A stretch of DNA of 64,000 bases from an uncultured bacterium (GTDB lineage Bacteria; CSSED10-310; CAZUFC01), in NCBI GenBank assembly GCA_964619725.1, contig CAZUFC010000027.1:8570-72569 (forward strand), given 5' to 3'. A program made the position numbers and the translations under genes. Under the pieces are notes generated by a model. It searched no databases. It saw only the letters and a list, made by a program, of their open reading frames with translations, and was not told the DNA's origin. This document shows, piece by piece, positions 14,980 to 40,405 of this stretch. The stretch's first letter is position 1; every line of letters starts with the position of its first letter.

Positions 14980-15279
14980 CCTGAGAAGGGTTTGCGAAGG
15001 GGTCAGAGCCCAGCGTGGAGCCCAGCGTGAAGCCTTGATTTTACAGGCGAGTGGGGGCTGAAATCCTTAGAGATTCCTATAAGCTTTCGTCTGCGAAGGG
15101 GTCTGCGAAGGGGTCAGAGCCCTGCTGGAAGCTATAAAAAATAAGGGAATTTTTGACTCTGTGCGTTAATATCATTATTTAGTAGAGAGGAATCTTGCGA
15201 GGGATTTTTGCAGGAGTTCTCTTTATTTATTCCAATGATGAATAGCAGGGTCAGGTATACCTATGGGAGGAAAAATTCA

Positions 15280-18200
15280 ATGAAAATAAGGATTTTGAAG
15301 TCACGTTTTGTGACATGTTTAATTTTTTGTTTTGCAGCAATCGCTTTTACGGGAATAGCAGTTTTGGGAGAGGGTCCTGGAAATGATTCAGGGGAGCAGA
15401 AGATTATAGAATCGGCGTTAAAGGCAAATGATTTTTCAGAGCTTAGCAAGGGGCTTGATAAGGTATGCGAAGAGATCGGAGTTCCAGCGAAAAAAACGAG
15501 GAACGAAAAGGAGGGAAAAGATGAAGCCTTGCGTTCTGCGGGACCCCCGGAATATGGGTCGTCCGTATCTATAAAAAGGGAGATTCACAGGGTGCAGGAG
15601 AACGGTTCGGATTCCATACCCTGGCCGACTGATTGGGACATCGACGGCCGGATGGATATTGTTTCGGGCGGTAATGACGGTCGTGTCAGATTGAGCAGGA
15701 ATATCGGGACATCAACGGAACCGAAATTTGAAAATGCGGTAACAATAATGATGGGTTACAGTTATGTCGATATCGGTTATAACTCGTCTCCCGTTCATTA
15801 CGATTGGGATTCAGACGGAAGCAGAGATTTGCTGGTTGGGGGTTGGCAAGGGAATGTAACTTTTTTCAAAAACAACGGCAGCGACACGACTCCGAATTTT
15901 TCAGGCGGAGTGCAACTGGACGCCGGTTACAGCGTTCTGGATGTGGGCAGCGGTTCACATCCCTTTGTCGTTGATTGGAATAATGACGGAAAGGATGATC
16001 TTCTTGTCGGAGGACATAACGGTCATGTGAATCTTTATATGAACGTCGGTTCTCAGACGAGTCCTCAACTTAATACAGGAAGTCAGATACAGGTGGGTTA
16101 TAATCCTCTGGATATGGAGGCGAAAGCGCAGCCCTGGGTCGTTGATTGGAACGGCGACGGGAAGAAGGATTTAATCGTATCGGGATTCAGTCCGTCAAAG
16201 ATATCGCTTTTTGAGAATGTGGGGACGGATGCATCTCCAGCGTTCAGCGAAGAAACTGTATTGTACGAGAAAGGGAAGCCGGTATGGCCGACTCTGGATA
16301 CCGGCTGGGCATTTGCCGATATGAACGGCGACGGAGCGGAAGATTTGGTGTTCATGGATTTTCATGCCGGCGTTAGATATTTTATGAACAAGGGAACCAA
16401 TCTAAGCAGAATATATGAAGAAGCGTATTACATTCCGGGAGAAGAACCGACAGATTTTTATCATACGATAAAGGCGCCCCGAGTCGTAGACTGGGATGAG
16501 AACGGATTAAAGGATATAGTTTTCAATATCTGGCGCGATGACCGTCATTACGTATGTTTTAATACGGGAACGGACTCAGAACCTAAGTTTACTCATCAGA
16601 AATTACTAACGACGACAACTGACCGTCATATGGGTTTCAACATTGATTATCATTGTCCTGAGATAGTCGATTGGGACAATGACGGAAAGAAGGATGTATT
16701 GATAGCGCGACAGGATGCATCGGGGCATGGCGATATCTATATTTTTTTAAATACGGGAGAGAATTACGATCCTGAGTTCGGGGAGCCTGAGAAGTTGTCG
16801 TCGGGTTATACCGATTTAGGACCGGAACGAACGATGAGCGTAGAGACGGCAGACTGGAATTCAGACGGCAAGAAGGATTTGCTTTTAGGTTCACAGGTGT
16901 GGACGGCGAGCGGGCGATTGCAATATGTATATGTGAATGATGGGACGGATGCCGCCCCCGAATTTTCAAGCGGTGCAGTCTTGTCTTACGGACCGGCGGG
17001 ATATGAACAACCGATACCCGGAACCTGGGTATCGAATCCTCACGTATGGGACTATGAAGAAGACGGCGACCCAGACATATTTACGACTACTAATGATGCC
17101 AGGGAGAGGGTTCATATTTTCAATAACGATGGATCAGCCGGGAATCCTCATTTAACGGATGGCGGTTTTTTATCTGCGGGTTATGGTTATGTCGGCGGCA
17201 GCGGACATATATTTCCAGAAACGACGGATTGGGACGAGGACGGCAGGAAGGACATGATCATCGGCGAGCGGAATACGATATCGTATTATCCCAATGAACA
17301 GACTAATCTTACGTCGCCTGGCGAGGTATCGGATTTGATGGTAGCCGGTGCGTCCGATTTTTCTATCAGTTTGACCTGGACGAACCCCGGTGATGAAGAT
17401 TTTAAAGGGGTGATTATAGTCCGTTCGCAGTCAACAATAACATGGAAGCCTTCCGACAGACAGGGTTATCATGTTGTTCCGGGAATAGAGATCGCTCCCG
17501 GAATCGAAGTAGTTTACAAAGGGGATGGAGACCATTCAACGGCGCCCTGGACGGATACCGGATTGAATCCTGGAACTCGTTATTATTACAGGGCGTTCGC
17601 CTATGACGCGGTTTTGCCGTCGTATTCAGTAGACGGAAGAGAGGTAAATGCGTTGACGGGCGGAGACACTCCCACACCGACGCCCACGATGCCTCCGACC
17701 GATACTCCTTTACCGACCGATACTCCCCTGCCGACGGATACTCCCCTGCCTGGACCTGCGGGCCCCCCAGAGTTCCTTTCGGCTCTGGAGATAAAACGCA
17801 ACGTTTACAAGATTAACGGTCATAATGGATGGTCGCCTTTTGTGACTGATTGGGACAATGATGGCCGTAAAGACCTGCTGGCAGGACACCATGACGGCCG
17901 CGTCTATGTTGCGATGAATATCGGGACCGGACAGGAGCCGAGACTGGATGAGGCGTATTTATTGCAGGCCGGATACAGTGATCTGGATGTAGTATGGTGG
18001 GCCTCGGCTCCGATGCATTATGACTGGAACGCTGACGGAAAGCGGGATTTGATCATCGGAAATATGAACGGCAACGTCTATTATTTCCGAAACTACGGTT
18101 CGGGTAATTCGCCTTCATTCAATTCCGGAGCTCAGCTTTCAGCAGGAGGAAGCGTCATTGACGTGGGATACGATGCACAGCCTGTGGTAGAGGATTGGAA

Positions 18201-21200
18201 CAATGACGGAAAACACGATCTCCTTGTCGGAGGGGCTCACAACGGCAAAATCAATCTTTTCCTCAATACAGGCAGCAATTCATCTCCACAGCTAGCTTCA
18301 GGCGAATTGATCGAGTCAGGAGGATCGCCTATCGCATTAGGCGCTAAGGTTAAACCTTGGGTAATGGACTGGAATTCAGACGGTCGAAAGGACCTTGTGG
18401 TCTCTGCAAGCGATTACCAGGGCGGTTCAATATACCTGTATGAAAATGTGGGAACCGATGCGGCTCCGGTTTTCGATGAGCGTCAAACGCTTTTCGGTAG
18501 GAATTTTGCCGTTCCGTTAAACGCCAAGGACTGCTGGACGTTCGCCGACTGGAACGGCGATTCAAAGACTGAAGTAGTAATAATCAATGATATGGGCGCC
18601 GTCATGTATTATCCTAATCAGGGAACGGAGTCGAATCGCAGCTATAGAGAAGCCATGTATGTGCCGGGCGATGAACCCACGATGATCTTCAATGAAGGGA
18701 AGATACCTCGAATAGTGGATTGGGATGAGGACGGATTGAAGGATATTTTTGTGAATTCTAGCCGCGGCGGATCGCATTATGTAATAGTCAACACGGGCAC
18801 GGTTGAAACGCCGAAATTCACCGGACAGAAGTTGCTGATGACGGATACCGGGAGTAAGATCGGGTTTCCGGGCAGTTGGTTCCAGTATATGACGCCTGAA
18901 GTCATCGATTGGGACAATGACGGCAAAAAGGACATTCTGGCCCCCAGGCGGGACTGGTATCAGGGCGGAGATGTTTATCTTTACATCAACGCAGGAGAAA
19001 ATTACGAACCTCAGTTCGGCGATCCTGTAAAACTGACGGACGGTTACACAGACATAGGACCTAAATCGACAAAGGGAATAGAAACGGTCGACTGGAATTC
19101 TGACGGTAAGAAGGATTTACTTCTGGGAACAGACTATTGGGGGGATAACGGGACATATCAGTATGTATATTTGAACGAAGGAACCGATTCCTCGCCGGAA
19201 TTTTCGTCTGGAGAACTGTTGCGATATGATGCCGGGGAGCCGATACACGGTTCTCCTTATTGCACTGTACGCGTATGGGACTATGAAGAAGACGGGGACC
19301 CGGACATCATTTCTGTGACGAACGAGTGCCGGGATAGGCTGACTAAATATAATAACGACGGCGTTTTGGGCAATCCGCATCTGGTTAATGAAGGTCATTT
19401 GACCACGGCTTACGGCTTTGTTTCCGGCTCCCATGTTGCTTTTGCGGAGCCCGTAGACTGGAATGAAGACGGAAAGAAGGACCTGGTGGTTGGACAACGC
19501 AATGGCATAATCTGGTATCCCAATAACCAATCCAATCAAACTTCTCCGCATGAAGTCAGCAATTTTTCGGTAGCAGGATCATCGGATTACAGTGTAAGTT
19601 TGAACTGGACCAATCCAAACGATAATGATTTTGCCGGCGTTATTCTGTTGAGGTCTTTATCTCCCATCGAATGGTTGCCTTCAGACTGCCAGCATTATCA
19701 CCTAAACGCAGGTGTCGAGGTCGCTCCGGGCATTGAAATAGCATATAAGGGAACTGGCGATTACTCGGCAGCGCCCTGGAACGATACCGGATTGATACCC
19801 GGAAACTTTTATCATTACAAGATATTCACTTTCGATCAGGTTATGCCGTTTTACTCAGTAAACGGTCGCGACGCAACGGCATATACAGGCGGAGAAACCC
19901 CGACTCCAGCGCCTCCGACAGAGACCCCTACGGCGACCGATACTCCCTTCCCGACTGATACGCCTCTTCCCGGACCTGCCGGACCGCCCGAATTTGATGA
20001 ACTGATTGAGATTAAAAGGGAAGCGTATCAGGTAAGTTCGTCAAGTTCAGGGAAGTACGAACCGTGGGTGACCGATTGGAACAGTGACGGCAAAAAGGAT
20101 TTGCTGACGGGGCAGTATGACGGACGAATCCGTTTGTGTCTGAACGACGGAACTGCTTCTGAGCCCAGGCTGCAGCCCAGCGTTTATGTGACGGGTGCTT
20201 ACGGGAACATAGACGCAGGCAATTATTCTTCTCCGGTCCATTACGACTGGGACGGCGACGGCAAAAGAGATTTACTGATAGGTAATAATACCGGCAACGT
20301 TGAATTTTACAAAAACTACGGCAGCGACTCAGCGCCTTCCTTTATAGACGGCGACGACCTGGATGCGGGGTATGGAATTCTGGACGTTGGCGGAATAGCT
20401 CAGCCGTTTCCTGTGGACTGGAATAATGACGGCAAAGATGATCTTGTCGTAGGAGCAAATGACGGATTCGTGCATCTGTTTATTAACGAGGGTGCCCAGA
20501 CTTCACCTCAACTTAATGCCGGCGGACCTCTGCAGGTGGGATATTCGCCGATAGACGTCGGTTCTGAAGCCAAACCCTGGGTCGTTGACTGGAACGGCGA
20601 CGGTCGAAAAGACCTGGTTGTTTCAGGTTGTTCAGCAGATGGGTGTCCGTTATGGCTATTCGAAAACATCAATACCGATGCGGAACCTCAGTTTGCCGGA
20701 GGCGTTATTCTGTATGATCACAACAGTCCGGTGGTCGAATCATACAATACGGGATTGACGATCGGCGATATGAATTCAGATGCAAAGGATGACATTGTCG
20801 CCGTATCAAGCGATTCGCAGGCTGTTATGTATTACGTCAATAAGGGTACGAACGCGAACAGAATTTATGAAGAAGCCATATACATACCCGGAGATGAACC
20901 GACCAGAATATTCAGTCACGACAAAGCGATTCGAGTGACGGACTGGGATGAGAACGGAGTAAAGGATTTGCTGGTAAATCTGGGTTGGAATGATCGACAT
21001 TATGTCATATTCAATACAGGATCAAGAGAAGAGCCGAAATTGACGAAACAACTTGCTCTGACCACGACAGCAGGAAGAAGTATCGGTTTTGAATCGTACA
21101 CCTATTTCTGTCCTGAAGTCGTAGACTGGGACAATGACGGCAAAAAGGACCTGCTGGTGACGCGGGCGGATTACAGTACCTATGGTGATATCTACTTGTT

Positions 21201-22386
21201 TTTAAATGAGGGTGAAAATTACGATCCTGTTTTCAATGCGCCTCAGATACTGTCTGGAGGATACGGCGATCTGGGACCGCAGAGAGCCAGGGGCGTGGAG
21301 ACGGCTGACTGGAATTCGGACGGAAAGAAGGATATTTTTGTCGGCAGCGACTTGAACCATTCCAATGGACATTATCAGTATTATTGCATTAATGCAGGAT
21401 CGGATTCCAATCCTGTTTTCGGGGCTGCGAATGTTTTAAGATACGGAGGAGGCGGTTACGATGCGCCCATACCCGGCACATGGCAGTCTACTCCTCATAT
21501 TTGGGATTATGAAGAAGACGGTGACCCGGATTTGTTTTCACGGACTCAGAACGACTATACTAAACTGATGAACTATGTGAATGACGGTTCACCCGGTTTG
21601 CCTCATCTGATCGAAGGCGGATTTATTGAAGCAGGATACGGATACGTTCAGCCGGGACTGGATGCGGAAACCGCTGACTGGAACAACGACGGAAAGAAAG
21701 ATTTGATGGTGGATATGTCCTGGGGGCTTGGTTACTACCCCAACAGTCAGGTTTCGTTGACGGCTCCGCATGAGGTAGTAGACTTCTCGATTGATTCGGT
21801 TAGCGGCGATTCAATCGATTTAGTCTGGCAACAACCGACCGATTATGATCTTGCTGGAGTGTTAATCGTGCGGTCGCTTTCACCGATCGTATGGCATCCG
21901 TCGGAAAGGCAGCATTACCATGTAGTATCAGGAGTTGAAGTGTCGTCGGGCGTTCAGATTATATACAAGGGCAATGATGATCATTCCGTTACGCCGTGGA
22001 CGGACGCCAATCTTGCCGAAGGGGAGACTTATTACTACCGGGCTTACGCTTATGATCTCGTTTTACCTTCTTATTCTGTAAATGGCGTTGAACTTGAGGT
22101 CACCACACTTATGGCAACTCCCACACCTGAAGTTACTCCGACGCAGGAGCCGCCGGAAACATCAACCGTTACGCCGACAGAAACATTAACTGTAACGCCA
22201 ACATTGACTTCAACTCCCACTCCTACAAATACGCCTACTTATTCTCCGACCACTACTCCCCTATCACCTACGCCGACAATAACACCGGAACCGACGCCGA
22301 TGCCTGCTCCGTCCTTGGGCGGATATGGAATTCTACTGATTACCGTTTTAATTGGAATTTCATTGTTGAAAACGAGGAGGAATTAA
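15280..22386 (+). CDS. Large surface protein: 3 x (10 FG-GAP/VCBS-like repeats + FnIII-like domain + P/T linker), with CTERM anchor
   Basis: Recurrent DWxxDGxxD motifs, LTWTNP...Y.YRAFAYD FnIII-like domains, and tail PAPSLGGYG-TM-KTRRN. ATG 15280 follows GGAGG. Confidence 0.85.
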   Translation: MKIRILKSRFVTCLIFCFAAIAFTGIAVLGEGPGNDSGEQKIIESALKANDFSELSKGLDKVCEEIGVPAKKTRNEKEGKDEALRSAGPPEYGSSVSIKREIHRVQENGSDSIPWPTDWDIDGRMDIVSGGNDGRVRLSRNIGTSTEPKFENAVTIMMGYSYVDIGYNSSPVHYDWDSDGSRDLLVGGWQGNVTFFKNNGSDTTPNFSGGVQLDAGYSVLDVGSGSHPFVVDWNNDGKDDLLVGGHNGHVNLYMNVGSQTSPQLNTGSQIQVGYNPLDMEAKAQPWVVDWNGDGKKDLIVSGFSPSKISLFENVGTDASPAFSEETVLYEKGKPVWPTLDTGWAFADMNGDGAEDLVFMDFHAGVRYFMNKGTNLSRIYEEAYYIPGEEPTDFYHTIKAPRVVDWDENGLKDIVFNIWRDDRHYVCFNTGTDSEPKFTHQKLLTTTTDRHMGFNIDYHCPEIVDWDNDGKKDVLIARQDASGHGDIYIFLNTGENYDPEFGEPEKLSSGYTDLGPERTMSVETADWNSDGKKDLLLGSQVWTASGRLQYVYVNDGTDAAPEFSSGAVLSYGPAGYEQPIPGTWVSNPHVWDYEEDGDPDIFTTTNDARERVHIFNNDGSAGNPHLTDGGFLSAGYGYVGGSGHIFPETTDWDEDGRKDMIIGERNTISYYPNEQTNLTSPGEVSDLMVAGASDFSISLTWTNPGDEDFKGVIIVRSQSTITWKPSDRQGYHVVPGIEIAPGIEVVYKGDGDHSTAPWTDTGLNPGTRYYYRAFAYDAVLPSYSVDGREVNALTGGDTPTPTPTMPPTDTPLPTDTPLPTDTPLPGPAGPPEFLSALEIKRNVYKINGHNGWSPFVTDWDNDGRKDLLAGHHDGRVYVAMNIGTGQEPRLDEAYLLQAGYSDLDVVWWASAPMHYDWNADGKRDLIIGNMNGNVYYFRNYGSGNSPSFNSGAQLSAGGSVIDVGYDAQPVVEDWNNDGKHDLLVGGAHNGKINLFLNTGSNSSPQLASGELIESGGSPIALGAKVKPWVMDWNSDGRKDLVVSASDYQGGSIYLYENVGTDAAPVFDERQTLFGRNFAVPLNAKDCWTFADWNGDSKTEVVIINDMGAVMYYPNQGTESNRSYREAMYVPGDEPTMIFNEGKIPRIVDWDEDGLKDIFVNSSRGGSHYVIVNTGTVETPKFTGQKLLMTDTGSKIGFPGSWFQYMTPEVIDWDNDGKKDILAPRRDWYQGGDVYLYINAGENYEPQFGDPVKLTDGYTDIGPKSTKGIETVDWNSDGKKDLLLGTDYWGDNGTYQYVYLNEGTDSSPEFSSGELLRYDAGEPIHGSPYCTVRVWDYEEDGDPDIISVTNECRDRLTKYNNDGVLGNPHLVNEGHLTTAYGFVSGSHVAFAEPVDWNEDGKKDLVVGQRNGIIWYPNNQSNQTSPHEVSNFSVAGSSDYSVSLNWTNPNDNDFAGVILLRSLSPIEWLPSDCQHYHLNAGVEVAPGIEIAYKGTGDYSAAPWNDTGLIPGNFYHYKIFTFDQVMPFYSVNGRDATAYTGGETPTPAPPTETPTATDTPFPTDTPLPGPAGPPEFDELIEIKREAYQVSSSSSGKYEPWVTDWNSDGKKDLLTGQYDGRIRLCLNDGTASEPRLQPSVYVTGAYGNIDAGNYSSPVHYDWDGDGKRDLLIGNNTGNVEFYKNYGSDSAPSFIDGDDLDAGYGILDVGGIAQPFPVDWNNDGKDDLVVGANDGFVHLFINEGAQTSPQLNAGGPLQVGYSPIDVGSEAKPWVVDWNGDGRKDLVVSGCSADGCPLWLFENINTDAEPQFAGGVILYDHNSPVVESYNTGLTIGDMNSDAKDDIVAVSSDSQAVMYYVNKGTNANRIYEEAIYIPGDEPTRIFSHDKAIRVTDWDENGVKDLLVNLGWNDRHYVIFNTGSREEPKLTKQLALTTTAGRSIGFESYTYFCPEVVDWDNDGKKDLLVTRADYSTYGDIYLFLNEGENYDPVFNAPQILSGGYGDLGPQRARGVETADWNSDGKKDIFVGSDLNHSNGHYQYYCINAGSDSNPVFGAANVLRYGGGGYDAPIPGTWQSTPHIWDYEEDGDPDLFSRTQNDYTKLMNYVNDGSPGLPHLIEGGFIEAGYGYVQPGLDAETADWNNDGKKDLMVDMSWGLGYYPNSQVSLTAPHEVVDFSIDSVSGDSIDLVWQQPTDYDLAGVLIVRSLSPIVWHPSERQHYHVVSGVEVSSGVQIIYKGNDDHSVTPWTDANLAEGETYYYRAYAYDLVLPSYSVNGVELEVTTLMATPTPEVTPTQEPPETSTVTPTETLTVTPTLTSTPTPTNTPTYSPTTTPLSPTPTITPEPTPMPAPSLGGYGILLITVLIGISLLKTRRN

Positions 22387-22762: not shown

Positions 22763-22848
22763 TATGCAGGGGTCAGAGCCCGGTGTGGAGCCCGGCGTGA
22801 AGCCCTATGCAGGGGTCAGAGCCCGGTGTGGAGCCCGGCGTGAAGCCT
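22763..22848. repeat. 2 x 43-bp tandem repeat containing GGGGTCAGAGCCC
   Basis: tatgcaggggtcagagcccggtgtggagcccggcgtgaagcc(c/t) occurs twice. A related unit lies at about 14999-15033. Confidence 0.9.
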
Positions 22849-22957
22849 AAGGATTCGATATCCGGCAGGGATGAGAATTTTACTTGCAAAAGCGGCGGCT
22901 TATTATGTATTGTTTCATGTTAGCTGTTCGATTTTTGCGGAAAGGAGTCGAGGTTTT

Positions 22958-25303
22958 ATGATACATGAAGATTTTTACAAGCTGGATGAAAAATGCGACA
23001 AATTTCTGGTGACTTGCGCTTTGCCCTACGTCAATAATGTTCCTCACTTGGGCAACCTCGTCCCCATCTTATCGGCGGACGTTTACACGAGATATTTGAA
23101 GTTGACGGGCATTCCTGCGATCTACATATGTGCTACTGACGAGCATGGAACTCGTACAGAAATGGAATCGAAGAAAAGGAACATGACGCCTGAGGAGTAT
23201 TGTCGTTTGATGCACGATAGGATAAAGAAGATTTTCGAATGGTTCGGCGTCGAATTTACCTATTTTGGGAGAACGTCCAGCGAGTCGAATCATGAAATAA
23301 CTCGGGATATTTTCCTTCATTTGGATAAGAACGGGTATATCTTTGAGGATAAAATCGAGCAGTTATATTGCGAGACATGCGGGCATTTTTTACCGGATAC
23401 TTTTGTGCTTGGAACCTGTCCCCATTGTAATAATCCTGAATCGAAAGGCGATCAATGCGACGTATGCGGCCGGTTTTTGGAGTCTGTAGAACTGTTGAAT
23501 CCGAGGTGCAAGATTTGCGGAACACCTGCGATTATAAAGGAAAGCCGGCATTTATTTCTGGATTTGCCCAAACTCGGTCCGCTGGTCAGGGACTGGGTAA
23601 AGAGCCGTGAATTCTGGAAGGGGTATCAGATATACAATTTACCGCTGGCCTGGATAAAAGAAGGATTAAAACCCCGTTGCATAACCCGTGATCTGTCCTG
23701 GGGAGTCAGAACCCCGAAAAAGGGATATGAAGATAAAGTATTTTACGTGTGGTTTGACGCTCCGATAGGATATGCTGCAGCGACTTACGACTGGGCCAGG
23801 GAAAACGACCAGGATTTTAAAACGTGGTGGAAACATGACCAGTCAAAGATCATTCATTTCATGGGCAAAGATAATGTCCCTTTCCATACTATAATGTGGC
23901 CTTCATCGTTGCTGGGCGCTGATGATCATTGGACATTGCCCTATTTCATCGCTTCAAACGAATATCTCAATTATGAACACGGGCAGTTTTCCAAGAGCAG
24001 GGGAGCCGGCATCTTTTCAGATGATGTGACGGCGCTTGAATTTCCGGCTGATTTCTGGCGCTTTTATTTGATGGCTTACAGACCGGAAAAAACTGATACT
24101 GATTTTCTGTGGAAGGACTTTCTGCACGCCGTTAATACGGATTTGATCGGAAATATATTCAATTTCGTGCATCGAGTGCTGAGTTTTACTCATAAAAATT
24201 TCGGAGAAATACCTCGCCGCGGCCAATTGAGCGATGAAGAAAGGGAGATGCTCGCGACGATTTCGGAAAAAGAAAATGAAATAAGCGAAGCGTACGGGGA
24301 TTTTCTTTTTCGAGCTGCGGTCAGAAGCATACTGGATATGTCGGATATAGGCAACAGGTTCTTTCAGCACAGCGAGCCATGGAAAGTAATTAAAGAGGAT
24401 CGCAGCAGAACAGGCGCTATATGTCATGTCGCCCTGGAGATAATAGCCAGACTGATGCATTGGTGCTCGCCGATGATTCCCGATGCCGCCGATAAAGTTT
24501 CACGATATCTTTCGCTGGACCAGGAAATGAAGCTGGTTGAAGGCGCTGTTTTGAGTAAACCTAAGCCGGTTTATCCGCGTTTGGAAGAAGAGAGAATACA
24601 AGAGCTGGCAGAGATGTTCAGGGGAAAATCGGAAGAAAGAAAAGAATCTTTTCCCCCCATAACTTTCAAAAAAGAAGATGCTGTTGCTTACGATTGCGTG
24701 ATCCTGGAATTCAAGAATCTCGATATAAAAAAGAAAAATCCGGAACTGGAACAATTGAAAAAACAGGTCTACAGTGAAATAAAGCCGGATAGCCTCCAAA
24801 ACAGCGATTATGTCAAAGGTTACGATTCGCTGCTGGGGAAACAGGACCGCGGCAAACGCTCATCAGTCACCAACCTGATCGATATTTTCAGAAAAAATCA
24901 GAGAATACCGAACTTCAACGTCATGGTGGATGCCTACAACTTGATGTCGCTGAAATACGGCGTCGTCATGGGCGCTTACGAAAGAAGAACCATTAAAGGC
25001 AATTTGATCTATAAAGTCGCCGACGGCTCTGAACATTTTATCCCCGTCGCAAGCGGTCAGAAAGAAAAAGTGTACGAAGGCGAGTGGGTGATCGCTGATG
25101 AAACGGGTATGGTGGTTACGCGTATTCTGTCCAAGCAATCGGAAGCGGTCGCCATCACCATGAATACCCGCTCTGCCGTTATGTGCATCCAGGGGAATCC
25201 GTGTATTCCCTTGGATGAGCTTAACAGAATAGCTGTGGAGACGGCGGGTTTGATTCAGGAATTTTGCGGGGGCGGATACCGGGTCGTCTATCCGGAAAAA
25301 TAG
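22958..25303 (+). CDS. metG: Methionine--tRNA ligase with C-terminal B3/4-like domain
   Basis: ALPYVNNVPHLGN, TDEHGT, CxxC zinc knuckles, YVWFDAPIGY, GKDNVPFH and FSKS motifs. ATG 22958 follows GAGG. Confidence 0.93.
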   Translation: MIHEDFYKLDEKCDKFLVTCALPYVNNVPHLGNLVPILSADVYTRYLKLTGIPAIYICATDEHGTRTEMESKKRNMTPEEYCRLMHDRIKKIFEWFGVEFTYFGRTSSESNHEITRDIFLHLDKNGYIFEDKIEQLYCETCGHFLPDTFVLGTCPHCNNPESKGDQCDVCGRFLESVELLNPRCKICGTPAIIKESRHLFLDLPKLGPLVRDWVKSREFWKGYQIYNLPLAWIKEGLKPRCITRDLSWGVRTPKKGYEDKVFYVWFDAPIGYAAATYDWARENDQDFKTWWKHDQSKIIHFMGKDNVPFHTIMWPSSLLGADDHWTLPYFIASNEYLNYEHGQFSKSRGAGIFSDDVTALEFPADFWRFYLMAYRPEKTDTDFLWKDFLHAVNTDLIGNIFNFVHRVLSFTHKNFGEIPRRGQLSDEEREMLATISEKENEISEAYGDFLFRAAVRSILDMSDIGNRFFQHSEPWKVIKEDRSRTGAICHVALEIIARLMHWCSPMIPDAADKVSRYLSLDQEMKLVEGAVLSKPKPVYPRLEEERIQELAEMFRGKSEERKESFPPITFKKEDAVAYDCVILEFKNLDIKKKNPELEQLKKQVYSEIKPDSLQNSDYVKGYDSLLGKQDRGKRSSVTNLIDIFRKNQRIPNFNVMVDAYNLMSLKYGVVMGAYERRTIKGNLIYKVADGSEHFIPVASGQKEKVYEGEWVIADETGMVVTRILSKQSEAVAITMNTRSAVMCIQGNPCIPLDELNRIAVETAGLIQEFCGGGYRVVYPEK

Positions 25304-25777: not shown

Positions 25778-26305
25778 ATGACGATATTTAAGAAGGATGA
25801 ACTAGTTTTAGATCACGTATTTGATCGAAAGACTAACAGGCATTACCTGAACGGGATGTTGAGCGTATTTCATTGTCATCATTATGCGACGTTATACACG
25901 CAGTTGGCGATGGATGCGGAGGAGACGGAATTATTGATCGACACGTCTGAAGACGTTTTTTTTGACATGTTGAAGAATTATTTTGAGACGCATGATGTAG
26001 ATTCAATCACGAAAAGAATAGATTTCGCTTGCGAATATTACGCTGCGCTTGGATTGGGAAAGATGAACGTGAGTTATGCGGGCGACGATTCCGGCCAGGT
26101 TGAGATAACGGCATCGCATTTAGATCAGGGATGGATAAAGAAGTGGGGTAAGCATGATGCGCCGGTCAATTATGTTGGTGCAGGCTACATCAACGCCATG
26201 TTTTCAGCAGTTTTCGACAAACCGAAGAAGTCATTTATGGCGACGGAGATACAGAGCATAGTAAAGGGCGCTGAAAGTTCTAAATTTAACGTGGTGGGGA
26301 GGTAA
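25778..26305 (+). CDS. V4R/4-vinyl-reductase-like domain protein with HCHHY motif
   Basis: LGLGKM...PVNYVGAGYINAMFS...EIQSIVKGAESSKF follows the V4R pattern. Confidence 0.65.
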   Translation: MTIFKKDELVLDHVFDRKTNRHYLNGMLSVFHCHHYATLYTQLAMDAEETELLIDTSEDVFFDMLKNYFETHDVDSITKRIDFACEYYAALGLGKMNVSYAGDDSGQVEITASHLDQGWIKKWGKHDAPVNYVGAGYINAMFSAVFDKPKKSFMATEIQSIVKGAESSKFNVVGR

Positions 26306-26916
26306 TGATGGCGATAGACAGAAATAAAGTAATTGATGAAATGTCGAAGATACAGATATGCGGAGATGAGAACGGGATAATCGATGCGTTTAACGTATTG
26401 GTGACGCAATTGCCGGCCAGGTTCTGGAATACGTTTGCGGACAGACTGACTCATAAGACGTCTCCCGAAATGCGGGAAGCCACGGAGTATCTGCTTTACA
26501 ATGCGGCCCATGAATGCGGTTATCACACGGGTTACGGAATCATCACATCGGAAGAATGGAAAGCGATAGTCGGTCCGATGGTTGAGAAGGTACCCGATGA
26601 CATTCTGCATGGAGCATTTGCCGTATTTACGGCCTGGGGCTGGGCTAATGCCGAGGTTGTTGAACTGGTACCCGGAGAAAAAATGGTTGTACGATCGTAC
26701 GATTATTATGAAGCCGACGTGGTGAAGTACGGAAGTTCGAGCAAGTTGAGCGCGTATATGATTGCTGGAGTTTCAGCAGCTTTTATGGAGCTTGCTTACG
26801 CTGGCGATTACGATCCGAAAGGGGCTCCGATCGGAACGTACGTATGCAAGCAGGTCAAAGGAATCGAATGCGGCGATCCTTATGGAGAGTTTATCGTAAC
26901 GAAAGCCGAAGGATAG
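26305..26916 (+). CDS. V4R-like domain protein
   Basis: AWGWANAEVV...AYMIAGVSAAFM...CKQVKGIECGDPYGEFIV. Coupled to the previous gene by a TAATG overlap. Confidence 0.65.
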   Translation: MMAIDRNKVIDEMSKIQICGDENGIIDAFNVLVTQLPARFWNTFADRLTHKTSPEMREATEYLLYNAAHECGYHTGYGIITSEEWKAIVGPMVEKVPDDILHGAFAVFTAWGWANAEVVELVPGEKMVVRSYDYYEADVVKYGSSSKLSAYMIAGVSAAFMELAYAGDYDPKGAPIGTYVCKQVKGIECGDPYGEFIVTKAEG

Positions 26917-38104: not shown

Positions 38105-40405
38105 TTAAAAGCCTTGCAATTCCTCCACCTGATTTTTAAGCGTTTCGACTTGTTGTGATAAGTCCTTGACGGCTTCCACCAGTACAGGAACGAGCTGTGA
38201 ATAGGAGACGGCCATATCGCCGTCGCATTTCATGGGATTCTCATCATAGTATTCAGCGACATCGGGGTCTAGTTTGATAGATTCATTCCCATCGGTGATG
38301 CGGATAATGGAGCTGTCGGGGAAGAGTTCAGCCAGTTCCTGAGCGGATAAGCCGTAATGCGTGCCCTGGGGCAGGCCTTTGTCTTCATTTTCTGATAGCC
38401 ACTCATAGGAGACGCCGTTGATTTTTTGAACGAGTTCGAGGGCGTTATCAATGGGGCGAACATTTTTCTGAAGCCTGGAGTCGGAAGCAATCCACAGTCC
38501 GTTGACGCAGGCGGGACCGGCGACGTGTAATTTGTAATTTTCGCTGGGGTAGACTCCGATTCCGGTATTCCCGCCGAAATGACAGCCGGCGTTTTTAAAA
38601 GCGGATTCAAAGGCAATATCGTCACCGCCCCAACCGCTGCCGGTGGCGGTGAAACCCCTCAGGAGTCTTCCGTTGTCATCGTCGATTCCAGCATAGAAGC
38701 CGTAATTGAAATAGGCGGGGAGGTCATCGGTGTGGTAGCCGCAATGAGCGCCTCCGCCGTTAGTATAGGCGCTGGAACCGTAGGCGGAAGCCCTGATGCA
38801 TACGCCCCAGGGTCGCGGAGAATCTGAAGTGGAAGTTATGACCGCTGTAATGGGATTCAAGGCGCTGGACCTTATGCCGTAGGTGTCGGCATAAGTATAG
38901 ACCCCGTAATAATCGCCGTAGGCATAGACGCCGGTGTTGCCGCCGTAGAAATATCCTCCCGTGGAATAACTGTATCCGTATACTCCCCGGTATCCGCCTT
39001 CGAAGTAGCCGCCGTATCCCCAATTGTCATAGGGCCAACTCCTTCCGTACACTGCGATTCCATCCGTATATGAATCATAGGTATATTCGGAGTGTATGAC
39101 GTGGGTCGTATCGCTTTCAACCTGCAACTGGTATGAGGGGGCAGAGGCGGAACCCAGGCCGGTTTTACCGGCAAGGTAATTCGATCCTGAACCGTTTGCG
39201 GAGATGTTATAACCCGGAGAGTCCACAAGCAGCTCCAGGGCCGTGTCGTCCGAGTCCTGGTTTGAAATGTGAATCGTGATGCCGCGGACCGCTGAACCTC
39301 CGTCGTCGTTAATGCCTGCGTATAAGCCATAGACGAATCCGCAACCTGAGGAGGAAGTAGTAATATCCGTACGATAGGCTCCCCCCGTCAGCGCTGAACC
39401 TGAGGCGTTCATTCCCGCCATGTAAGCCCAGGGTCTGTCATTGTCCGCCACGCTGACTTCAGAATAAATTCCCCGCTTGGCGCCGTCCACGTATAATTTG
39501 TATAAGCCGGTGCTTGAGCTGCCGATGCCGACGGTATCGCTGTTCGTCACCAGACTGACGGTTGAGCCTGAGTCGGTCCAACCGTTCCCCGGACCTGACG
39601 GACCGCGTGAACCGGTGGGACCTCGGGCTCCCGTGGGACCCATTGCGCCCGTGGGACCCTGGGGACCGCTGGGACCGCGACTTCCCGTCGGGCCGGAAGG
39701 TCCTCTTGAGCCCGCAGGACCAATAGGTCCGGACGGTCCGGAAGGTCCGCGCGCACCGGTAGGTCCCTGAGCGCCGGGTGAACCCGTTGGGCCGGAAGGA
39801 CCTCGGGAACCTGTCGCTCCAGCCGGTCCGGTGGGACCGGACGGTCCCGCAGGTCCTGTTGCTCCCGTTAATCCCATCGGTCCTGACGGTCCGGAAGGAC
39901 CCGACGGACCTGTGGGGCCTGCCAATCCCATCGCTTCACCGACCCATTCGCCCGAAGAATTTATTACCGTGCCGTACCCGGTTATGGATATGCTTTGAGG
40001 CGTTATATTTCGATCGAAAACGTCGTCGGCCTGTGCCGAACGATAAGACTGACCCGTGCTGGTTAATTTTAACCGGGGACTCATAGTTTCACCGTCCACG
40101 ATTATCTGAAGCCAGAATGTTCCATTGAAATTGACGTCTCCGGGGTCAATGGGATTCGCCGCACCCAATAATACATTGAAAATGCCGGCATTTACGCTGA
40201 CGTCGTTATGCGTTTCCTCCCAAAGCAAACTTCCCCCGAAAGGCGAATCGTATATTCTGAAAGTGAAATCAAAATTGCCCGTTTCCGGCTCCCCCATATT
40301 GTCCGTTAATGTTCCCTGATAATTGATCTGATAAGGGATTTCTGCATGAACCGCAACAGAAATTGAACAAATAAGAAATAAAATCAAAAATCCTCTAGCT
40401 CTCAT
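38105..40405 (-). CDS. Secreted collagen-like protein with C-terminal peptidase S74-type intramolecular chaperone domain
   Basis: Signal peptide, [10 protein letters not shown]-domain, 38 Gly-X-Y triplets, then [16 protein letters not shown]...YGLSAQEL...LVEAVKDL coiled coil. Confidence 0.85.

Follow-up and report, generated by a model that had tools for sequence, protein, structure and literature searches.

Why should a methionyl-tRNA synthetase (MetRS), which to our knowledge is regarded as the class Ia synthetase without a post-transfer editing domain, end in what resembles a proofreading deacylase? The question is raised by the metG gene of an uncultured bacterium (lineage CSSED10-310), found in a 64,000-nucleotide (nt) stretch of contig CAZUFC010000027.1 from a metagenome-assembled genome (MAG; assembly GCA_964619725.1); this whole stretch is called the window below. 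The fidelity of MetRS is ascribed to its synthetic site and to the pre-transfer cyclisation of homocysteine. In the gene described here, the usual C-terminal tRNA-binding domain, an oligonucleotide/oligosaccharide-binding (OB) fold, is replaced by a full-length deacylase-like B3/4 domain that most resembles CtdA, a canavanyl-tRNAArg deacylase, and that is carried on a short, probably flexible tether. The reading that we favour, at a probability of roughly 0.55, is that the tail is a tethered post-transfer editing domain that would clear a neutral methionine analogue from tRNAMet. The architecture combines known kinds of protein, that is, synthetases with an appended editing domain and CtdA-like B3/4 deacylases, and is not a new category.

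The C-terminal tail of the metG product

The gene and its parts are laid out as follows. Pfam residue positions are numbered on the 810-residue frame that begins at the first ATG (22871), and all pocket residues discussed later are numbered on the 781-residue protein that begins at ATG 22958.

22958..25303, forward strand: metG fusion gene, 781 residues plus stop, with MetRS core, linker and CtdA-like B3/4 domain in one frame
22942..22947, forward strand: Shine-Dalgarno-like AAGGAG, seen in the sequence 10 nt before ATG 22958
23003..24181, forward strand: class I MetRS catalytic domain (PF09334, tRNA-synt_1g; residues 45-437 of the 810-residue frame; E 2.7e-145)
23045-23056, forward strand: HLGN, the HIGH motif, intact
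23987-24001, forward strand: FSKSR, the KMSKS motif, intact
24209..24628, forward strand: MetRS anticodon-binding helical domain (PF19303, Anticodon_3; residues 447-586 of the 810-residue frame; E 4.8e-14)
24608..24664, forward strand: linker from the anticodon-binding domain to the B3/4 domain, about 16-20 residues, of low confidence in AlphaFold2 (AF2)
24665..25300, forward strand: complete CtdA-like B3/4 domain of about 210 residues (AF2 model, Foldseek and PF03483)
24854-25192, forward strand: core of the Pfam B3_4 family (PF03483; residues 662-774 of the 810-residue frame; E 2.7e-13, 50.3 bits)

An earlier note on this DNA, made from the letters alone, had described the tail of metG as resembling B3/4 proteins and as unlike the Trbp111/EMAPII type of OB fold, and both points are upheld by profile and by fold. 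The PF03483 score is 50.3 bits with the whole protein and 53.3 bits with the tail alone, against a gathering cut-off of 29.3. The Pfam scan gave no match to PF01588 (tRNA_bind) in the fused gene at E <= 1, although as a positive control it detected that family at 63.9 bits in a second MetRS-like gene of the same genome. An AF2 model of the last 247 residues, built on a 96-row alignment, has a predicted local distance difference test (pLDDT) score of 94.3 and a predicted template modelling score (pTM) of 0.85, and in it a compact alpha/beta domain of about 210 residues comes after a low-confidence stretch. When this model was compared with the PDB by Foldseek, the top three matches were CtdA chains (entries 9f7e, including 9f7e_A, and 9mkl), with E values of 1.2e-13 to 8e-13, template modelling scores of 0.69-0.77, and 225-227 columns aligned out of 226-231 residues. 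Next came about thirty chains of the beta subunit of phenylalanyl-tRNA synthetase (PheRS) at E 9e-10 and weaker. All 35 chains at E <= 0.001 are CtdA or PheRS-beta, except for LRRC47, which has a B3/4-like region. There was no OB fold among the PDB matches of the model, and with neither this fold nor PF01588 found, a Trbp111/EMAPII-like tail was rejected. A sequence search of the PDB with HMMER likewise placed CtdA first (E 1.6e-5 and 2e-5), with nothing else significant.

The earlier note had likened the tail both to the PheRS-beta editing domain and to free-standing deacylases. Both likenesses stand, but they are not equal, for it is the free-standing CtdA and not PheRS-beta that lies nearest. 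CtdA is the best match by sequence as well as by fold, and the match runs across the whole of its roughly 226-231 residues, so that the tail is an entire B3/4 deacylase of the stand-alone type, extending beyond the Pfam core. The identity between the two is just 18-19%, and CtdA, at about 230 residues, is free-standing, whereas here the domain is fused in frame to MetRS. The B3/4 editing domain of PheRS-beta, which acts on Tyr- and m-Tyr-tRNAPhe, has the same fold and belongs to the same family, PF03483, with Foldseek E values of 9e-10 to 1e-5 for the Escherichia coli, Acinetobacter baumannii, Thermus thermophilus, Mycobacterium tuberculosis and human proteins. The full-length coverage of CtdA suggests that the modelled domain has the CtdA type of topology, with its helical insert, rather than the PheRS type. 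The hosts also differ, PheRS being a class II synthetase and MetRS a class I synthetase. The genome has its own PheRS-beta, an archaeal/eukaryotic-type protein of 568 residues encoded outside the window (contig C57, L007:1474-3180, reverse strand). Its residues 1-356 align with residues 1-348 of Pyrococcus horikoshii PheRS-beta (2cxi) at E 1.2e-58. The Pfam B3_4 model misses the B3/4 region of this protein at E < 0.01, which leaves the MetRS fusion as the only PF03483 match of the genome.

Between the anticodon-binding domain and the B3/4 domain, confidence drops. In the full-length AF2 model (pLDDT 90.3, pTM 0.75), the residue blocks within 551-570 of the 781-residue protein have pLDDT of 66-70, and residues 559-562 fall below 50; residues 21-30 of the domain model have a pLDDT of 62. 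On these models the linker is probably a flexible tether. A homodimer prediction for the B3/4 domain, run without controls, gave a score (0.00) that counts neither for nor against a dimer.

In front of this tail stands a MetRS of ordinary make. The protein passes the NCBIfam long-form metG model PRK00133 (618 bits; cut-off 587) as well as TIGR00398 (543.8 bits; cut-off 336.35), and the match to PRK00133 reaches as far as model position 582 of 676. Long-form bacterial MetRSs with a Trbp111/EMAPII-like tail share this core and linker and carry their extra domain at the same attachment point, but theirs is a PF01588 OB domain and the fused protein described here has neither that family nor that fold. 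The active-site motifs have been kept among relatives: H30, G32, S345 and K346 are invariant in an alignment of seven fused homologues, and in an alignment of 25 sequences the first three are invariant and K346 is nearly so. Moreover, the genome has only one further MetRS-like gene, located outside the window (contig C13:81077-83242, reverse strand) and encoding 722 residues with a PF09334 match of 192.7 bits, an Anticodon_3 domain and a C-terminal tRNA_bind domain (PF01588, 63.9 bits). This gene has lost both class I motifs, reading SIDREFSIED at the HIGH position and SSSDDK at the KMSKS position, and its core is only 21-27% identical to MetRSs of the same phylum. Its product probably does not charge tRNA, and this could be a MetRS paralogue that binds tRNA but is catalytically dead. 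Hence, with HLGN and FSKSR intact in the one and both motifs gone from the other, the fused gene is taken to be the working methionyl-tRNA synthetase of the organism. The two genes probably, but not certainly, reside in the same organism, since contig C13 is compositionally more peripheral in the bin (tetranucleotide-distance rank 142 of 171) and the bin has an estimated contamination of 6.5%.

The same arrangement is seen elsewhere. In four of the five other genomes examined (G042-G045), the fused gene reaches 469-508 bits, and no further match exceeds 81 bits; these lower matches are frames of 480-1060 residues that resemble other class I synthetases. The fifth, a Sumerlaeota MAG (G041), has a second MetRS that seems intact; since an HFGH motif and a KMSKS-like stretch are still there, the idea that it is a degenerate paralogue like the one on contig C13 was rejected.

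As to the limits of the gene, the frame is open without a stop over 22871..25303 on the forward strand. ATG 22958 is most likely the true start, because AAGGAG lies 10 nt upstream of it and because the database gene call (781 residues) and the alignments of six homologues all begin there. The 29 residues between the first ATG and this one are unconserved. The strings that the earlier note had quoted, RIPNFNVMVDAYNLMSLKYGVVMGAYE, IKGNLIYKVADGSEHF, GEWVIADE, VVTR and QSE, are all present in the translation, and the interval 24610-25303 that it had singled out spans the linker and the whole C-terminal domain.

Authenticity, distribution and history of the fusion

The domain was sought in two ways. 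A scan of one genome per prokaryotic species, with a seven-row alignment as the query, gave 95 relatives, 80 of which were kept; the same scan with the single protein as the query gave 92 pattern matches, none of them confirmed. In 25 of the 80 kept loci the domain is in frame with a MetRS. A cluster search of a library of 1.84 billion proteins returned 732 representatives, and the best 150 of these comprise 24 MetRS fusions, 12 other long proteins and 114 proteins of at most 300 residues. The earlier note had proposed a search for other proteins of this make, and both approaches found them. Among bacteria, the holders are Planctomycetia, Candidatus Sumerlaeota, Bradymonadales, "Proteobacteria", Krumholzibacteriaceae, Shapirobacteria and other Patescibacteria; among archaea, they are Micrarchaeota, Nanoarchaeota, Woesearchaeota, Bathyarchaeia and unclassified archaea. 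In the Bathyarchaeia, Woesearchaeota and Nanoarchaeota forms, which are about 906-911 residues long, the order is MetRS, Anticodon_3, B3_4 and tRNA_bind. That is, in Bathyarchaeia and some DPANN archaea the B3/4 domain has been inserted before a tRNA_bind domain that was retained (residues ~761-853), and the end of the PRK00133 alignment in our protein corresponds approximately to that tRNA_bind site.

For any fusion that comes from a MAG, and above all from one with an estimated contamination of 6.5%, it has to be asked whether a chimeric contig or a sequencing error has joined two genes. An artefact of assembly or of gene calling is so improbable here that it can in practice be dismissed. 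The frame runs through the joint without a stop, and contigs from three other samples bridge it (24278-24668, 24519-24803 and 24416-24689) with 0 differences and with no alternative joints. These contigs come from the same microbial-mat study and are of low depth, so that their support is modest but direct. Six further proteins of 750-777 residues, from four data sources, combine PF09334 with PF03483 and have tails 42-48% identical, and the same architecture recurs in genomes that were assembled independently (25 of 80) and among the best 150 cluster representatives (24 of them). Contig C27, from which the window derives, is compositionally central in its bin (tetranucleotide-distance rank 11 of 171); for two proteins compared with phylum relatives, identities of only about 30-41% are too low to bear on the binning. 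On the bridging contigs, the recurrence and the composition, then, an assembly chimera was rejected, and the in-frame fusion noticed in the original sequence is real and recurrent.

A quick maximum-likelihood tree of 124 domain sequences places the domain of the window in a clade with a Shimodaira-Hasegawa-like approximate likelihood-ratio support of 100. The clade has 26 rows, 20 of them MetRS-fused, 4 short (probably fragments) and 2 fragment-like, and it mixes bacteria with DPANN-like archaea. Other MetRS-fused groups are scattered among free-standing proteins. When the 41 MetRS-fused rows, a group defined by architecture but after the tree had been seen, were forced to be monophyletic, the approximately unbiased (AU) test rejected the constraint, with a log-likelihood difference of 783 and p-AU of 4.4e-5. 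Thus, the domain has been fused to MetRS, or split from it, several times.

Within the phylum of the window, the domain was found in only 1 of 14 genomes (the source genome itself, G000), the others being 60-96% complete. The MetRS core is 44% identical to that of one phylum member (G004) and at most 33% identical to the rest, while the whole fused protein is 48-52% identical to fused MetRSs of other phyla and 35% identical to the fused homologue P0009. Vertical inheritance within the phylum is therefore disfavoured, and both the single occurrence and the nearer match to fused MetRSs elsewhere suggest that the gene was acquired horizontally, which is likely but not proven.

MetRS is not the only partner. 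Relatives of the domain are also fused to arginyl-tRNA synthetase (ArgRS; N-terminal B3_4 in P0141), to the C-terminus of a class II D/K/N synthetase, to a YbaK-type tRNA_edit domain, to an Anticodon_2 domain and to a GFO/IDH/MocA oxidoreductase, the cluster representatives P0161, P0132, P0116, P0084 and P0038 being among this set. P0161 groups with the ArgRS-fused P0141, a placement made by clustering and not by Pfam, and the ArgRS-fused relatives occupy a different part of the tree from the clade of the window. An ArgRS fusion would fit the known substrate of CtdA. In addition, open frames of about 791-799 residues in Chloroflexi MAGs (L066, L087 and L089), and another of 710 residues (L079), have a relative of the domain at the C-terminus; no MetRS match was found in their N-terminal parts.

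The predicted pocket and the role of the tail

The text of PMC12449066 gives a measure of what an active domain of this kind needs. In CtdA the substitutions N105A, G116H, G116W and Q173G abolish activity; the pocket comprises N105, G116, E118, C166, Q173 and I189; and C166 is strictly conserved and tunes specificity for canavanine versus arginine. Counterparts in the metG product were read from a HMMER pairwise alignment to CtdA (9mkl) at about 19% identity, in which the position of C166 is ambiguous by one.

Within 24938..25186, forward strand: predicted aminoacyl-pocket codons (781-residue numbering), mapped from CtdA 9mkl
24938-40, forward strand: N661, counterpart of CtdA N105
24971-73, forward strand: G672, counterpart of CtdA G116
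24977-79, forward strand: Y674, counterpart of CtdA E118
25115-20, forward strand: V720/T721, counterpart of CtdA C166 (V720 by the HMMER pairwise alignment, T721 by the family alignment)
25136-38, forward strand: Q727, counterpart of CtdA Q173
25184-86, forward strand: C743, counterpart of CtdA I189

The three residues on which CtdA activity depends are conserved in the MetRS-borne domain. N661 and G672 are present in 15 of 15 rows of the clade and Q727 in 14 of 15, and all three are invariant in seven full-length homologues. Of the editing-site residues N254, H265 and G318 of E. coli PheRS-beta, only the first has its equivalent here (N661); at the places of H265 and G318 stand Gly672 and Gln727, as in CtdA (G116 and Q173), by a mapping that is indirect and goes through CtdA (text of PMC12449066). 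The residues that line the side-chain pocket have been replaced. E118, C166 and I189 of CtdA become Tyr, Val/Thr and Cys, so that the C166/E118 signature of the CtdA type is absent. In the same 15 rows, Y674 and T721 (the latter preceded by Val or Ile) occur in all 15 and C743 in 13, and none has Cys at 720 or 721. This signature, Y674, T721, C743 and Q745-G746-N747, is conserved across phyla, and at the first three of these places the other MetRS-fused groups and the stand-alone relatives have His, Cys and Ile/Tyr. E118 is listed simply as a pocket residue in the text of PMC12449066; we infer that it may be what suits CtdA to the cationic side chain of canavanine. With the activity residues kept, the side-chain pocket altered and an acidic residue lost, the pattern is consistent with a working hydrolase whose substrate is another one and carries no charge.

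From this comes the reading that we favour, in which we infer three things, namely that the domain is catalytic, that its target is tRNAMet, and what sort of side chain it attacks. The MetRS core would bind tRNAMet by its anticodon and charge it. The tethered B3/4 domain would then sample the aminoacylated CCA end, perhaps while the tRNA is still bound, perhaps on the other subunit of a dimer, or perhaps by catching the tRNA again at once; it would hydrolyse the ester bond if the side chain were that of a near-cognate, uncharged methionine look-alike that had passed the synthetic site, and it would spare Met-tRNAMet. For the side chain, norleucine, ethionine, homocysteine derivatives and hydroxymethionine are no more than candidates. 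That the fusions are specifically to MetRS, repeated and independent, points to tRNAMet as the target. The co-occurrence of B3_4 and tRNA_bind in the MetRSs of Bathyarchaeia, Woesearchaeota and Nanoarchaeota indicates that the B3/4 domain is not a mere stand-in for a tRNA-binding tail. Nor does it compensate for a loss of PheRS editing, because the PheRS-beta of this genome keeps its own B3/4 region. The fusions to ArgRS, to the class II D/K/N synthetase and to the YbaK-type domain fit a family of deacylases that is recruited to synthetases.

Several points weigh against this reading. In known MetRS-tRNA complexes, the end of the anticodon-binding domain lies far from the acceptor end. Since it is from there that the tether departs, a true transfer of the CCA end in cis is not obvious, and a full-length model with a pTM of 0.75 and a disordered linker does not fix the geometry. 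The domain sits where long MetRSs carry a tRNA-binding or dimerising domain and CtdA itself is a dimer, so that a structural role could be the reason for its retention. The pocket of the clade of the window (Y, T, C) is unlike that of the other MetRS-fused groups (H, C, I/Y); to judge from the alignments there is no single "MetRS-type" pocket, and either the substrates differ or the pocket has been remodelled. The mapping of the pocket itself rests on about 19% identity, with the one-position ambiguity at C166. The neighbouring genes give no hint of a methionine analogue. Last, the domain of the window is probably near a "CtdA-2" branch, as judged by the taxa of the relatives (archaea, Chloroflexi), and that branch is described as uncharacterised in the text of PMC12449066.

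The structural possibility deserves to be put in its strongest form, namely that the B3/4 domain is catalytically idle and serves as a tRNA-binding module, a dimerisation module or both, in place of the Trbp111-like domain. Its position is that of tRNA_bind in long MetRSs (the PRK00133 alignment ends at 582 of 676), the second MetRS-like gene of the genome has its tRNA_bind at the same place, and CtdA is dimeric in solution and in crystals (text of PMC12449066). The genome also encodes a free-standing protein of 124 residues that resembles tRNA_bind, being 32% identical to that region of the paralogue in a comparison made without a Pfam scan; if the resemblance holds, tRNA-binding functions would be modular in this organism. 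However, an idle module would not be expected to keep the three CtdA-essential residues in 14-15 of 15 clade members, nor a whole pocket signature across phyla, and in Bathyarchaeia and some DPANN archaea the domain exists side by side with the very tRNA_bind domain that it is supposed to replace. We regard the idle module as unlikely. Slightly less probable again is an active deacylase with another substrate, be it methionine on non-methionine tRNAs or a tRNA that some other synthetase has mischarged (canavanyl-tRNAArg or Tyr-tRNAPhe, for instance), with MetRS as no more than an anchor. Stand-alone relatives do work in trans, and what they recognise is chiefly the aminoacyl group, as reported for CtdA (text of PMC12449066), a tether from the anticodon-binding end would suit trans action, and the pocket varies between MetRS-fused clades. 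But C166, on which the discrimination of canavanine from arginine depends, and E118 are both changed; the ArgRS-fused relatives are elsewhere in the tree; the retained B3/4 region of PheRS-beta leaves nothing there to replace; and if neither tRNAMet nor the products of MetRS mattered, it would be difficult to see why the domain has been joined to MetRS in particular, independently and more than once.

If tethered proofreading of tRNAMet is the correct reading for this protein, it might be extended to the branch as a whole. In that case the MetRS-fused forms of bacteria, Patescibacteria, DPANN archaea and Bathyarchaeia, along with their free-standing relatives, which are probably the CtdA-2 group, would make up a hitherto unrecognised system that proofreads tRNAMet and nothing else, and would act as a "second sieve" for methionine. 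We put this forward tentatively, as a possibility that we would sooner doubt than assert.

Surroundings, precedents and meaning

The genes around metG offer no further clue to its function. Upstream lies a gene for a protein of 2392 residues of the FG-GAP/VCBS repeat type with an N-terminal signal-like segment (15208-22386, forward strand), which apparently comprises three modules of about 770 residues with Pro/Thr-rich linkers between them and a hydrophobic tail at the end. Two perfect copies of a 42-nt unit, 43 nt from start to start, are present between that gene and metG (22763-22847, forward strand), some 110 nt before metG begins. Downstream are two small open reading frames (ORFs), a class V aminotransferase and then TPR proteins. 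The two ORFs (25778-26305, 175 residues, and 26305-26916, 203 residues, both on the forward strand) begin 475 nt downstream of metG, and the stop of the one overlaps the start of the other; neither has a significant Pfam family, and they are not conserved beside fused metG elsewhere. When eight neighbouring proteins of the window were compared with the 80 loci, none was conserved beside the fused genes. The sole match was the class V aminotransferase; at the 4 loci where it occurred, the B3/4 homologue was archaeal and stand-alone, and several kb separated the two genes. The window neighbours are otherwise TPR proteins, FG-GAP proteins and proteins without a known family, and the window contains no tRNA genes. 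Farther away, on the reverse strand (38105-40405), is a protein of 766 residues with collagen triple-helix repeats and a C-terminal Peptidase_S74 domain (endosialidase intramolecular chaperone), a combination typical of phage tail fibres or spikes.

The concept of a second hydrolytic site on a class Ia synthetase is familiar from the CP1 domains of the isoleucyl-, leucyl- and valyl-tRNA synthetases. CP1, however, has another fold and is inserted in the Rossmann fold near the acceptor end, whereas the B3/4 domain here is tethered to the far C-terminus. MetRS has a small CP1 of its own, for which we know of no post-transfer activity. A precedent that concerns tRNAMet itself is AlfB, a member of the AlaX family reported in 2026 as a trans-acting deacylase of 3-hydroxymethionyl-tRNAMet (text of PMC13149037); therefore, post-transfer editing of tRNAMet does occur in nature, and so can the need for it. 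Like the domain proposed here, AlfB is a hydrolytic proofreader of MetRS products. It differs in having the AlaX/ThrRS-editing fold, in being free-standing and in being encoded in a biosynthetic gene cluster (text of PMC13149037), a gene context that the metG fusion lacks.

We found no description of a MetRS-B3/4 fusion in the full-text literature, a search in which "B3/4" cannot be queried as written and which does not extend to supplements, so that an earlier mention is possible. None is described in the text of PMC12449066, PMC13149037, the bioRxiv preprint on CtdA, the deacylase-mining paper or AARS Online, although some may figure among the CtdA homologues in Table S2 and Fig. S14 of PMC12449066. 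Similarly, the texts of the CtdA and deacylase papers examined describe none of the other domain fusions (ArgRS, D/K/N, YbaK-type and the rest). The fused proteins themselves are in public databases and, where named, are named only "methionyl-tRNA synthetase".

If the wider reading, that of the branch as a whole, is true, MetRS would have to be counted with the synthetases whose products are edited hydrolytically after transfer, and many lineages of mats, sediments and groundwater would face a loss of fidelity from tRNAMet mischarged with some natural analogue of methionine. A MetRS with a complete and conserved CtdA-type deacylase would show that editing modules can be recruited to the charging of methionine, and that the B3/4 fold has been put to use far outside PheRS and the defence against canavanine. 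Uncultured lineages that are only remotely related share the architecture, minimal genomes being found in several of them, and its gain or loss was not a single event, which argues for selection on a function linked to tRNAMet. From a more practical perspective, incorporation of methionine analogues such as norleucine and azidohomoalanine matters for recombinant protein production and for protein labelling, and an enzyme that clears such analogues from tRNAMet would, if the reading is true, be a useful tool. Demonstrated activity would also give the uncharacterised CtdA-2-like branch of the family its first function.

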